From positions 91,140,001 to 91,204,000 of the forward strand of contig OX597818.1 of the NCBI GenBank assembly GCA_951406725.2: a stretch of 64,000 bases of DNA, written 5' to 3'. The stretch comes from Octopus vulgaris (lineage: Eukaryota). The notes below the pieces were generated by a model. The model worked only from the letters and a program-made list of their open reading frames with translations. It was not told the origin of the DNA and searched no databases. Positions 29,686 through 57,999 of this stretch are shown here, one piece after another. The position numbers were made by a program, and so were the translations under genes. How positions within the stretch are numbered: the first letter of the stretch is position 1; each line of letters opens with the position of its first letter.

Positions 29686-29736
<51 letters not shown>

Positions 29737-29737
29737 C

Positions 29738-30398
29738 TAAAAAATTCTAGCGGCGAGTTTGCCCGACTTCAGTTCTTCGATTTTTGCTGTAGCGAGTAAA
29801 TTATTTGTGGAAATTGACGATTTAATAGTCTGTTATCATCAGCATATTGGCTTTGAATTAATTTTCTTTAGCCCTTACTTATAAGTTGTTTATAATTTTA
29901 ACCGTAAAGGTATTTTAATATGCTGCCACATTTGTTGATGGAATTTTTTTCTGTAGAGAAAAAAACTTCATACTATATTAGTAGTAGACTTATTAATAAT
30001 CGCTATAGGGTCTGGTAACCCCTATAACCTGTAGTGGGGAACGGTAAACACGTTGTACTGAGGCTGACCAAAGAATTTTCATTTTTAGATATAACTGGGG
30101 TACTTAAATGTACTCATGTTTTTTGCTTCGGCTTTTTCCATGGGCGCATGTAGGTATCTTATTTATATTCTTTCGTAAGCTCTACTGAGGAGGAATAACT
30201 CTTTTATGAGATTAATTCCGAAATTGATTCAATATAGAGATAACGAATTTTAAAAAAATTCTAACGGCCAGCTTGCCCGACTTCAGTTCTTCGATTTTTG
30301 CTGTAGCGAGTAAATTATATGCGGAAATTGACGATTTAATAGTCTGCTATCAGCATATTGGCTTTGAATTAAATTTCTTTAGCTCTTACTTATAAGTT
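29738..30398 (+). mobile_element. Non-coding HHR-containing element with ~150-bp terminal direct repeats (retrozyme-like or partial tandem pLTR)
   Basis: Direct repeats 29738-29887 and 30251-30398 (period ~514 bp), HHR at 30172-30247, TA-rich microsatellite flanks. Confidence 0.7.
30172..30247 (+). ncRNA. Type I hammerhead ribozyme (canonical core)
   Basis: ttcgt-aag-ctcta CTGAGGA ggaat..attcc GAAA ttgattcaa TA tagag-ata-acgaa; predicted cleavage after A30234 (AUA triplet). Confidence 0.8.
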
Positions 30399-30600
30399 AT
30401 ATGTATATATGTATGTATATGTCAGTATTCAGTTTATTTCAAGATTTATTTACTAGTAGAGAAAGGACCGGTTTCGTTGGAATTTTAAGATCAACAATAG
30501 GGTGTGTATGTATGTATGTATGTATGTATGTATGTATGTATGTATGTATGTATGTATGTATGTATGTATGTATATGTATGTATGTATATGTGTATGTATA

Positions 30601-31452
30601 CAGTGTACGGTGAATAAACTGTCGTCTAAATTATGAAAAAATGAGAATAAAACTGACACCTTATCTTAAGACATAAATTACCAAATTCCAAATATATATC
30701 CTGAAATACAAAAAAGTAATTTTTTGCAATAAAATCATCATTGGTTTCAGCCGCGGCCTCCAGACGATTTTGAAATCTCCTGCAACTCTCCTGGGTGGTT
30801 TCTTTGTATAAGTTGCAGCTATAATCATGCAGCTATAATCCTTGCCTTTGGTTCATTCTTGTAATTAAAAAGAATTTTTTGGTCCTTCGCTCAGCTGCGC
30901 CCTAATCATAATAATCAAGGATCGCAGTGTGGAGAGTTAAGTGGCCAGATATTAGATGTGATGTGGTCGCAGAAATTTTCATGTAGCCATGACTGGGTTC
31001 TCCTGCTTGTGTGGTATGGTGCAGAGTCTTGTTGCAGATATAGGGCCTTCAAGGACTACCTCCTCCAGGCACTTGATATAGGCCTCCGTGTTGAGTCTGA
31101 GGCCGTGTGGAAGAATGAATGGAGGCATAACGTCGTCATCACTAGTGATCACTCCAAACAATATGATGTTGACTAGATGTCTTACTTTTATCACTCGTGG
31201 TACATGTTTTGGGGACCCGGCAAAAACTGAGATTGACACCCTAACACTCTTGGAGCTTCCAGTGCGAATGCCAAACAGAACAGGATGTCGTTTCCGAAAT
31301 TCTGGCAGAGTGAATTGCGTCATAGTGCTGTTGATCTCGCAGACGGTGCCCAACTGACCCTACTATAATGTGTATTCGACAAAATTAAAAACAAACTATG
31401 CGCATGCGTGAAATTAAACATATACAATGGTGACAATTACTCATCGCACACT
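30601..31452 (-). mobile_element. Internally deleted second copy of the same Tc1/mariner family with imperfect TIRs
   Basis: Homologous to 2215-3357 (MTQFTLPEFRKRHPVLFGI, ILFGVITSD); termini cagtgtacggtgaataaactgtc / rc aagtgtgcgatgagtaattgtc. Confidence 0.8.
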
Positions 31453-32133: not shown

Positions 32134-32266
32134 ATGCCTTCCTACACTCTCCACTACTTCAACCACCGTGGCCGTGCTGAGATCTGCCGTATGCTGTTTG
32201 CAGCTGCTGGTGTCCAGTACAATGATCGCAGGATCGAGTCTTCGGAATGGAACAACATGAGGAGCA
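32134..32266 (+). CDS. S-crystallin coding exon 1 ([16 protein letters not shown]...EWNNMRS, phase 1)
   Basis: accATGc start context; GST N-terminal YFNxRGRAE motif; donor A|gtaagt at 32267. Confidence 0.96.
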
Positions 32267-36161: not shown

Positions 36162-36280
36162 CATTTACAGCACTGAGGTTTCTCAAGCGGTCACCCATCT
36201 AAGTACTCACTAGGCTCAACGTTGCTTAACTTCGCTAACCGGACTAGAACCGGTGTTTTCAACGTAATATGGCCATGAGC
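36162..36280 (-). pseudogene. Full-length dispersed 5S rRNA pseudogene
   Basis: rc gctcatggccatattacgttgaaaacaccggttctagtccggttagcgaagttaagcaacgttgagcctagtgagtacttagatgggtgaccgcttgagaaacctcagtgctgtaaatg; ~119 nt, recognisable A- and C-box segments, many substitutions. Confidence 0.88.
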
Positions 36281-54294: not shown

Positions 54295-54335
<41 letters not shown>

Positions 54336-54480
54336 AAAAGCAATTAAGATTCAAGTCAATTCTAATGAATTTACTTGAATGCGGTACTTAACTTAGATGC
54401 ACCAGAAAACTATATGGTGTTAACCATACAGTAATGTGGGGTGATTATAAACGAGAAAGAAGCAACAAGAATGAATTAGT

Positions 54481-54571
54481 TTTTAGTACAATTGTTTCAT
54501 ACAAAGACAGGCTTTATTAAAAGTTGCAAATATTGCAGCAGATAAAAGTGTCCCGTACTCATCAGCTAAAA
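54481..54571 (-). ncRNA. PLE-type hammerhead ribozyme with long stem II (intact copy; G8A variant at 56906-56996 on +)
   Basis: rc ttttag CTGATGA gtacggg..tttgtat GAAA caattg TA ctaaaa. Confidence 0.75.
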
Positions 54572-55858
54572 CACATATGAGTTCTCCAAACATCTTAGTG
54601 GGTGAGGCTACACTCGTGAAGTATTGGAGATAATTTCATTAAAAGCAGATTTAGGTTGTAAAGAGACTTCCGAAGTTCTTTAATGATGATGCACAGTCTT
54701 ATCACAGGTTTTTAAAAAAGCTTATTAGCTTCACAGAGAAGGTGAATTAATCCGTAGTGTAGATGTAAATTTCCAGAGATATGAGGAGGAATTTCATACT
54801 CACAGACGATGAATTTATCCATGGTTAATCCACAATGAGGTGGGTATAATTTCATGCTATATGATAAGGTATTTGTCACATTACTGTTCTCTTCACAAGA
54901 CTGCTATGTTATGACTTCTAAAGGCTGAAGGAATTTTTGTGGAGCAAAGAAAAGAAAAGAAAGGAAAGAGAAGAAAAGAGACAAGGAAAAGGAAAAAAAG
55001 AAAAAGAAGAAAGAAAAAGGAAAAGAAAAAAGAAAAAAGGGGAGAAGAAAAGAAAAAAGAAAAAAGAAAAAAGGGAAAGAAGGGAGAAAAGAAAAAACGC
55101 CCACATAGAGTATACTGTAACAACTGAGAGGGAAAGGGGTCGCAGGTGACCCACTACACAGAAAAATTTGTAGACGGCTTGGCTGGCTTCGAATTTGCAG
55201 GAATCTAAGAACTATAAGGAGAACATTATTTTTGACCAGTAAACAGCTATTTATTGCCAACCTGACGTAGCTGAAAGCAGATATGAGAATCTAAAGAGAT
55301 AACAAGTTTAGGGATAGAGGGGTCAAAGGCTATCATCAAAAGGAAATACATTAAGAGAAAAAAATAAGTGCAATCCTAACAAGAGGTCATTTAAATTTAT
55401 TTATTTATTTATTACTGTTACTGTCTTAAATTGTTGCCGTTACTATCTATACATTGACAGACTACAGGTCAAAACTTAGAAGTTTGTTTACAAGGTGTGA
55501 GGGAATTGCCTATTATACTGAAATTTCTCATACTACTTTCAAGGGAGTAGCATTACTTATTTAATTTTGTAATAGAATTATGAAGTCTTAGTAACTTATT
55601 TTATTAAAGTTGTGTTACCTAAATTAGATTAAATTAAAAATTTAAAATTAAATTTAAAATTAAATAAAACTTCATTTAAGCAACGTACAAGTACTATTTG
55701 TTTCCTTGTGCTCAAAATCAAGTGCAGTTATAAAGAAAGAGATAACTGTAGTGTGAGAGCTCGCAGTTATCTACTTAAAAAATTAAAGTTATGCTATACT
55801 AGTAAAAAACAAGCTATATCTATCTATCTATCTTGTTACGATTATTCTATACGGTTAT

Positions 55859-56794
55859 TCATTTAAAATATTTTAGAGTCTTCAATTTTGCGTGGACACA
55901 AACTTGACCTAATTCAATATGGTTATTTAACAAACCCTTATTTTTTCTATGCTTCAGAATTTCATACGTTTCCATGGAGCAGAGTTGGCAACCAAACCTG
56001 TTATTTTTATACGGCATTGCTCTTCTAACTATTTCCCGATTAAGGTTATAATTCCTATTATTATTTTTGAGTTCCCAGATCTTATTTGAAAGTGTGATGG
56101 TACCAGCTTTATGACGTAATTTAAAAGATGAGACGTGGTTTCTAACTCTATCTCTAAAATTTATCGTACAACCAATGTAAAAAAATTTATTATTCTCAGT
56201 AGATATGGTACATTTATAGATTACGTTATTTACCCCGCATAGACCAGGTGCCGGGCATTTTGACTTAATTCTACACTTACACGCAGGAGGAACAACTTCA
56301 GATGTTGGATTATTCATGGATAGATGTCTTATGTTCCTGTTATTTTGATTATCATGAGTATAATTATCTTTATTATTATTATTATTTTTATAGTTGGTGC
56401 TGTTATCTAAAGCATTGTTATTATTTATTGATCCTTCTGCTCCATCCTTTAGGTCTAAAGTCCTACCATGATTATTTACATTATTGGTATTGTTACTATT
56501 ATTGCTAGTATTTGTATCTGAATGTATATTGTTGTTATAGATATCACTGATATTTTCATTCTCTGTATTTTCTCTGTTAGCCTTACTTCTATTATTAACA
56601 TTATTACTTCTATTAATATCAATATTATTATTACTCCTATTAATGTTAATATTATTATTAGTCATTCTGTGGTTACTGATTCCACCCATGTTTTGATAGT
56701 TACTATTGTTGCGTTTATTGTTGGTATTATTATAATTCTCTGTGAAGCTAATAAGCTTTTTTAAAAAACCTGTGATAAGACTGTGCATCATCAT
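55859..56794 (-). CDS. PLE-derived ORF: Asn-rich linker plus CxCx5Cx5C and GIY-YIG endonuclease domain (no RT)
   Basis: CKCRIKSKCPAPGLC..VIYKC..YIGCT..FRDRVRNHVSSF..LSNKIWELK..PY..CQLCSMETYEI..LLN..CVH; uninterrupted 311 codons; the start codons come from the inverted repeat. Confidence 0.7.
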   Translation of the reverse strand: MMMHSLITGFLKKLISFTENYNNTNNKRNNSNYQNMGGISNHRMTNNNININRSNNNIDINRSNNVNNRSKANRENTENENISDIYNNNIHSDTNTSNNSNNTNNVNNHGRTLDLKDGAEGSINNNNALDNSTNYKNNNNNKDNYTHDNQNNRNIRHLSMNNPTSEVVPPACKCRIKSKCPAPGLCGVNNVIYKCTISTENNKFFYIGCTINFRDRVRNHVSSFKLRHKAGTITLSNKIWELKNNNRNYNLNREIVRRAMPYKNNRFGCQLCSMETYEILKHRKNKGLLNNHIELGQVCVHAKLKTLKYFK

Positions 56795-57024
56795 TAAAGA
56801 ACTTCGGAAGTCTCTTTACAACCTAAATCTGCTTTTAATGAAATTATCTCCAATACTTCATGAGTGTAGCCTCACCCACTAAGATGTTTGGAGAACTCAT
56901 ATGTGTTTTAGCTGATAAGTACGGGACACTTTTATCTGCTGTAATATTTGCAACTTTTAATAAAGCCTGTCTTTGTATGAAACAATTGTACTAAAAACTA
57001 ATCCATTCTTGTTGCTTCTTTCTC

Positions 57025-57097
<73 letters not shown>

Positions 57098-57576: not shown

Positions 57577-57688
57577 TATATATATATATATAATATCAGG
57601 GAGTATAATTTTCTCTAAGTTAGATATATATTAATTTTATAAATGAGAACATCAAAATCAGACAAAACATTTTCTATTTTCTATTTTC

Positions 57689-57734
57689 TCTAGACTGATG
57701 ATGGGCAAGACCTAGAAACATGCATGTCTCTAGA
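57689..57734 (+). ncRNA. Type I hammerhead ribozyme (canonical core, palindromic stem III)
   Basis: tctaga CTGATGA tggg-caaga-ccta GAAA catgcatg TC tctaga; GUC triplet, predicted cleavage after C57728. Confidence 0.85.
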
Positions 57735-57999
57735 TGCAGGCCTAGCTGTTGGGGGTGTTTGTCTCCCCTTCGTAAATATATAAGGACACAGGAAATGTAC
57801 CAAGGCCGACAGGAAGCGTCGATGCTTCCTAGGGCTAAACAGCGGTGGTGTAATTCCCTTACAGGATTGTCACTTTAAGTTGACAGAACACAACAACTCT
57901 TACGCTCCACCACCGTACATATCTCTATGAGATATTTAGAAATTTAATATTTCTGAAATATATATTATATATATATGTGTGTGTGTGTGTGGGGGTGTG

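Follow-up and report, generated by a model that had tools for sequence, protein, structure and literature searches.

The insert at 29739-30398 of the window, by which we mean the whole stretch of 64,000 nucleotides of Octopus vulgaris DNA that was analyzed, is best explained as a 5'-truncated copy, 1.3 units long, of a protein-free hammerhead family that has fixed ends in TA microsatellites, with a Penelope-like element (PLE) acting in trans as the likely agent that copied it from RNA. We give this explanation a probability of about 0.8. Animal retrozymes are already known; the contribution made here is mostly the quantitative footprint: copies end at one of two internal sites, and two-armed copies use one site per arm.

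The insert and its hammerhead motif

A repeat search of the window finds a unit of about 514 bp at 29739-30252, followed by a partial second copy that reaches 30398. The repeated segments, 29739-29887 and 30253-30398, are spaced by 514 nt and are identical in 138 of 149 columns (93%), with one 3-nt indel, which bears out the head-to-tail unit in about 1.3 copies proposed in a preliminary description of this DNA. That description also placed the insert in a TA-rich microsatellite and called it non-coding. Both statements agree with what we find, i.e., (TA)n at 29687-29735 on the left, a short TA/TATG tract to the right of 30398, and a unit interior overlapped by no stop-to-stop frame of more than 55 aa. 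The features used below are:

29687..29736, no strand: (TA)n microsatellite of the left flank, the likely insertion target
29739..30252, plus strand: full 514-bp non-coding unit, 33% GC, whose 5' end is the truncation point of the insertion
29887..29894, plus strand: site A (unit positions 149-156), where TTATAA-N5-TTATAA ends; the first of two 3' ends that are fixed in the family, here lying inside the full unit
29895..29986, plus strand: 'tail' of about 92 nt from site A to site B (unit position ~248), with a predicted hairpin at 29938-29971
30172..30247, plus strand: type I hammerhead motif, with predicted cleavage after AUA at 30234/30235
30253..30398, plus strand: partial second unit (positions 1-149), which stops at site A and is without a second hammerhead
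30399..30420, no strand: TA/TATG tract of the right flank, as read in the sequence

The window copy consists of one arm only, with its 3' end at site A. It is decaying: the overlapping parts differ by 8 substitutions in 146 nt (4 without the first 21 nt), which at a rate of 0.0036 per million years, borrowed from the available text of PMC13282606, would very roughly correspond to an age of 4-8 million years. Fold prediction places the unit RNA ahead of 100 out of 100 shuffles (z -3.5). The short inverted repeat at site A is retained across subfamilies, and the predicted hairpin of the tail covaries weakly, at 2 of 19 pairs. About 30 nt 5' of the hammerhead, at 30138-30155, lies the motif CCATGGG...GTARGT, which is present in subfamilies A, B and C described below. 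It comprises an ATG and, 10 nt later, what we take to be a splice-donor-like site, and may be the remnant of a PLE 5' exon; subfamily B does not conserve an acceptor to match it.

The complete type I hammerhead predicted earlier is found in the sequence with all its stems and all core positions present. The putative core is formed by CTGAGGA (30185-91) and GAAA (30220-23), stem II by GGAAT/ATTCC and stem III by TTG/CAA, while stem I pairs CTCTA at 30180-84 with TAGAG at 30235-39, and past an internal loop TTCGT at 30172-76 and ACGAA at 30243-47 extend the pairing. With AUA as the triplet, the cut is predicted where the description had put it, at 30234/30235. A strict hammerhead descriptor matches the window twice (at 30185 and at 57695) and gives no match in 200 block-shuffled windows; a search with Rfam gave no hammerhead match, neither at gathering level nor at E<=10. 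The ribozyme fold lies above the predicted minimum-energy fold by 3.1 kcal/mol for the fragment and by 4.6 kcal/mol in the circular monomer. The topology is type I and the repeat runs head to tail, with no type III hammerhead in LTRs of the kind that defines plant LTR retrozymes.

The stems also covary. In a hand-picked set of 23 hammerheads, made up of 10 from subfamily A, 12 from subfamily B that were selected for passing the descriptor and 1 from subfamily C, 92.7% of 413 cells pair, compared with 32-46% in slid controls. Compensatory changes are seen in 7 of 18 pairs, four of them in proximal stem I and two in stem II; these counts are inflated by kinship among the sequences, but the changes do run between subfamilies. 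Because the stems covary between subfamilies that are only 72-76% identical, selection on the fold is implied.

Among the full hammerhead homologues of subfamily A, 40 of 110 pass the descriptor. Two full-length homologues in tandem are carried by 11 insertions, and both are intact in only two of these (L003 and L011). If 'active' loci are taken as those with two consecutive complete hammerheads, following Li et al. (Li, Clavereau and Pollet, 2026, 10.64898/2026.07.22.740005), then L003 and L011 belong to this class and the window locus, with one hammerhead, does not; with a single hammerhead the window copy could not by itself release a circle. One subfamily, which accounts for 5 of 42 copies (including L005, L010, L013 and L023), has a C-C mismatch where stem II begins at its base, and since this subfamily has multiplied, spread may not require cleavage.

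Another type I hammerhead motif, unrelated to the first, occupies 57688-57735 of the window (plus strand), with a palindromic stem I (TCTAGA), a GUC triplet and a palindromic stem III (CATGCATG); a short stutter repeat stands just before it.

The dispersed family and its insertion footprint

Searching the octopus's own 2.8 Gb genome with the unit gave 2572 candidates, of which 40 were scored. Of three short motifs, a hammerhead motif of 29 nt had 479 exact matches, and the two others had 413 and 1205 (one mismatch); their reversed controls had none. The other genomic copies, whose lack would have counted against the preliminary description, thus exist, in many hundreds and dispersed. A second subfamily (B) has a unit of 470 bp and is 72-75% identical in the aligned parts. 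A third (C) was found at L205, a locus followed as a lead to a parent element that turned out to be another non-coding subfamily.

The copies are short, with a median span of 462 bp, and scattered; they do not form satellite arrays. In a set of 132 insertions that is biased to long copies, an arm exceeds one unit in 45 cases, the longest measuring 1328 nt or 2.6 units, and no ORF lies between the units. Tandem units within one locus share subfamily alleles, with 0.48 differences compared with 2.03 between loci, and differ by private changes. Judged by its sequence, the insert belongs to a family of hammerhead repeats that are dispersed, carry no coding region and run head to tail, as non-LTR retrozymes do. 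This agrees with the retrozyme-like reading of the insert; the family fits the sequence-level definition of a non-LTR retrozyme and is likely an octopus member of this known class. Literature searches of main texts returned no octopus retrozyme paper; the family may already be catalogued elsewhere, e.g., in a supplement or in Repbase/Dfam.

For the footprint we used 100 loci picked only by their 3' region, which represent 88 distinct insertions with 132 outer ends. Site A (unit positions 146-170) accounts for half of these ends (66/132) and site B (238-272) for 57, and the other 9 lie elsewhere. The sequence (TA)3 adjoins 114 of the 123 outer ends located at A or B, so that insertion is targeted to microsatellite (TA)n. 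Of the 88 insertions, 44 are inversions with two arms, whose 3' ends both face outward. In 39 of them one arm ends at A and the other at B, none has two like ends and 5 are unclassifiable, i.e., the combination A+B accounts for 39 of 39 classifiable cases. When 160 loci were used, giving 132 distinct insertions, the corresponding counts were 52 A+B, one A+A, one B+B and 11 unclassifiable (p ~2e-13 against a 50:50 expectation). The 28 inversions in 60 further loci, which were chosen by the tail motif, not de-duplicated and read with slightly wider site windows, comprise 20 A+B, one B+B and 7 unclassifiable. In reading all these counts, some nearby loci may be duplicates and not independent events.

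The insertions are 5'-truncated partial tandems with an inverted arm, as expected of the PLE type, and they have a tail that lies between two fixed 3' ends and is present at one end only, with a length of about 92 nt compared with the published 30-40. The available text of Craig et al. (2021, PMC8557442) counts an inverted arm and a tail confined to one end among the features of PLEs, and in that of Frangieh et al. (2024, PMC11167929) the PLE tail lies between two internal starts of reverse transcription. Ends at two sites, one per arm, are therefore the PLE 'tail' signature, and support the proposed mobilization of animal retrozymes by PLEs.

The explanation that we favor can be written as a short series of steps. 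The reverse transcriptase and endonuclease of a PLE, acting in trans, would likely copy the retrozyme RNA. The endonuclease would nick (TA)n, and reverse transcription would begin inside the RNA, at site A or at site B. If both target strands are primed, one from A and the other from B, a two-armed insertion would result; if one arm is kept, the result would be a single-arm copy such as that in the window, which is likely an inert offspring. Because the template spans the ribozyme site, it would be either a circle closed by re-ligation or a tandem transcript left uncut, and circles could come from the rare loci with two hammerheads.

The template and the coding PLEs of this genome

The left end of the insert lies about 18 nt 3' of the predicted cut, and in the preliminary description this was read as a clue to the origin of the copy. 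The position is correct, but as a clue it fails, since 5' ends are not enriched there. Among the 5' ends of 123 arms, only 1 lies 5 nt or less from the predicted cut, and the stop rate in the 33 nt directly 3' of the cut is 7 of 64 arms at risk, with rates of 0.07-0.24 in neighboring windows. The predicted cut is crossed by 56 of the 123 arms and by the window copy itself. The 56 arms that run through it do not support copying from a self-cleaved linear RNA, which the preliminary description had suggested beside a circular one, and together with the lack of enrichment of 5' ends they mean that a cleaved linear monomer alone cannot be the template. Between the two templates that span the site we put the re-ligated circle at about 55% and the uncut tandem transcript, possibly with template jumps, at about 45%. 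The sharing of alleles within loci fits a circle and a homogeneous dimer alike and so favors neither.

The four sequencing runs covered, of 21 listed, all gave assembled contigs of the family (1162 records in an unclassified run, and 1, 114 and 41 in three runs guessed to be RNA); such contigs can show neither transcription nor strand nor ends, and they count neither for nor against expression. Two contigs of run X9 end at 30234, the predicted cut, but the unclassified run also has contigs that end at 30233 or start at 30234, and contigs from a 31-letter graph would be interrupted there by a variant at 30203 that is common; we therefore treat the contig ends as an assembly effect.

The alternative that survives best, and that we regard as a serious possibility though not the favored one, is the same non-autonomous PLE-type element without a circular stage. 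The template would be an uncut read-through transcript, tandems would arise via template jumping, and the hammerhead would be slow, protein-gated or a passenger, so that this alternative differs from the favored explanation at one step. It has analogies in other animals: in the available parts of the respective papers, hammerhead mutants of the anole PLE insert normally with uncut RNA as the main substrate (PMC11167929), and 8 of 9 Xenopus retrozymes did not cleave (10.64898/2026.07.22.740005). The octopus data add that the C-C subfamily of stem II has spread, that 5' ends ignore the cut site and that the longest arm is just 2.6 units. However, covariation of the hammerhead stems across subfamilies argues for selection on the fold, and circles are abundant for the retrozymes of mussel, coral and axolotl, as far as the available text of PMC7229834 goes. 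Linear templates alone would also be expected to shorten the copies each round unless jumping rebuilds the tandems.

Taking the circular template one step further, we tentatively consider that all two-armed insertions may come from one circular 510-nt RNA, with the PLE priming the two strands at two obligatorily different sites 92 nt apart. If true, the octopus retrozyme would be a minimal protein-free substrate that directly shows both the mobilization of retrozymes by PLEs in animals and the origin of the PLE tail in vivo. The length of the tail could then serve to assign a retrozyme to the PLE clade that is its partner, here likely a Hydra-type element.

With four PLE proteins of this genome as queries, no copy examined is joined to an ORF with RT and GIY-YIG; the attachment to a coding PLE that, according to the preliminary description, would have made the element an ordinary pLTR is thus not seen in these copies. 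Matches to these proteins lie within 3 kb of 11 of the 160 loci and of 1 of the 60 further loci. Five loci with PLE neighbors were extended, and in none of them is DNA shared between the unit and the PLE ends; in the closest case, L247, a TA tract separates the retrozyme from the PLE, with whose ends it has no DNA in common. We also found no DNA homology to coding PLEs in the GIY-YIG loci (L091-L134), in the loci of the 980-aa family (L165-L204) or in the extended neighbors (L277-L281), although further PLE families exist beyond those sampled (6136 and 16592 candidates). Joined to no PLE ORF and homologous to neither coding family, the element is non-autonomous. Unit matches in L102/L122 and L195, considered as evidence of a parent, proved to be separate insertions of subfamily B.

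These results bear directly on whether the copies are ordinary pseudo-LTR stumps of an unsampled coding PLE, which we consider highly improbable and, for the sampled copies, largely refuted. Such stumps would be expected from insertions that are mostly 5'-truncated, as those of PLEs are in the available text of PMC8557442, and the PLE protein fragments near 11 of the 160 loci, together with queries limited to four proteins, leave them some room. However, the long arms wrap into a preceding unit and not into an ORF, and in the 60 further loci read-through past site B enters unit sequence, apart from three that enter unrelated DNA with no PLE protein match. Even at L247, the closest case, the copy is split from the PLE in the way described above.

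Two coding PLE families are plentiful in this genome: one of 781 aa with RT and GIY-YIG, and one of about 980 aa that carries the motifs RWK and CxCX5C and has many near-intact ORFs. By its motifs the latter appears to fit the Hydra description in the available text of PMC8557442. It has two ends that adjoin TA, about 36 and 150-154 nt past its hammerhead (~117 nt apart), and 4 of the 5 inverted copies read, including that at 54330-57028 of the window, have one of each end; the fifth has a shorter first end.

The element at 54330-57028 is a two-armed, 5'-truncated coding PLE with Hydra-type motifs. Its minus arm holds the end of the ORF (55859-56815), the 3' UTR, a hammerhead with a long stem II and a tail ending in (TA)n, and its plus arm ends 36 nt past its hammerhead. 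The loci L121-L126 hold a young 781-aa PLE family with an upstream ORF and terminal repeats of about 300-500 bp that are 99-100% identical; the core of its hammerhead is degenerate, and its tail measures about 35 nt. Retrozyme copies in TA tracts that adjoin coding PLE copies were seen at L122, L195, L247, L215, L276 and L325, as is expected if both use the same targets.

A different machinery altogether, with the copies as SINE-like passengers of a LINE (RTE, Dong-R4 or CR1) or as a satellite spread by DNA recombination, is very unlikely. The window does contain many LINE fragments, and an octopus repeat annotation shows LINEs in abundance (PMC13282606, in its available text). Against this, the copies have two fixed ends, both internal and each used by one arm, in agreement with the PLE tail and with the coding PLEs of this genome; a single 3' end that carries poly(A) or a repeat tail is absent; and the copies are dispersed and of short span (median 462 bp), not arrayed as a satellite.

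Known systems and the S-crystallin gene

The comparisons in this section refer to the available text of each source. Like the metazoan non-LTR retrozymes of Cervera and de la Pena (2020, PMC7229834), where a mussel family is described, the octopus family has a non-coding head-to-tail unit, one type I hammerhead, a GC content below 50% and a self-paired RNA, and it coexists with PLEs. Unlike them it has a unit of 514 bp, above their 150-450 bp, and unlike the coral retrozymes with long arrays its arms reach only 2.6 units. Insertion into (TA)n, two-armed inversions and a 92-nt tail are not among the features described for metazoan retrozymes in that text.

The Xenopus study (10.64898/2026.07.22.740005) reaches the same conclusion on origin, i.e., that retrozymes are non-autonomous PLE derivatives. 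The octopus unit length lies within its range of 51-972 bp, and monomers are dispersed in both. The Xenopus evidence consists of co-occurrence and pLTR homology, with no mollusc included, whereas the octopus evidence is an insertion footprint, and unlike in Xenopus no homologous pLTR was found among the sampled octopus coding PLEs.

A mechanistic parallel is the anole Poseidon PLE (PMC11167929), in which two internal starts 3' of the hammerhead likewise bound the tail, the targets are AT-rich, both strands are primed and the cut is not the end of the copy. The anole tail differs in being 30-40 nt long and in belonging to a coding element. In vitro, its start sites show no strand difference, whereas the two-armed octopus copies use each site once. 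With the Hydra clade and other EN+ PLEs (PMC8557442) the octopus family shares (TA)n targeting, partial tandems, canonical hammerheads, an inverted 5'-truncated arm and a tail at one end only. Unlike those elements it lacks an ORF, and no homology of its DNA to the sampled coding PLE families was detected. Non-autonomous head-to-tail PLE families (Chlamys) are known in Chlamydomonas (PMC8557442).

The copying of animal retrozymes by PLEs is still a hypothesis drawn from shared hammerheads, co-occurrence and pLTR similarity (PMC7229834; 10.64898/2026.07.22.740005). The octopus family leaves the mechanical footprint of a PLE in quantity, in a genome with many near-identical full-length PLE ORFs, and this makes PLE mobilization of retrozymes testable. 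The strict rule of one site per arm also sharpens the published two-site model of initiation.

The S-crystallin gene downstream of the insert was correctly recognized in the preliminary description: the best match of the exon at 32134 is the structure of an octopus S-crystallin (5b7c, E 1e-24), and the end of the insert lies 1736 bp from the ATG, on the same strand. Sequence analysis of the locus found no functional link between the copy and the gene. Since the family has copies in the many hundreds and TA tracts are dense, the proximity needs no explanation, and the copy beside the gene looks ordinary. Co-option as a regulator of S-crystallin, e.g., by cutting upstream read-through transcripts, is the least likely of the alternatives, even though the copy lies 1.7 kb upstream on the same strand with its hammerhead motif intact: many hundreds of other family members likewise sit in TA tracts, and such tracts are dense around this gene, the copy is decaying (8 differences at 146 overlapping positions), a transposon fragment lies between copy and gene, and the motif is also kept in 40 of 110 sibling copies.

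The fragments between the insert and the gene, at 30600-31360 of the window (minus strand), resemble what we take from their motifs to be Tc1/mariner transposase. Further along, at 36162-36280 (minus strand), lies a lone match to 5S rRNA that scores 75 bits, above the threshold of Rfam, and may be a pseudogene or the head of a 5S-derived SINE.
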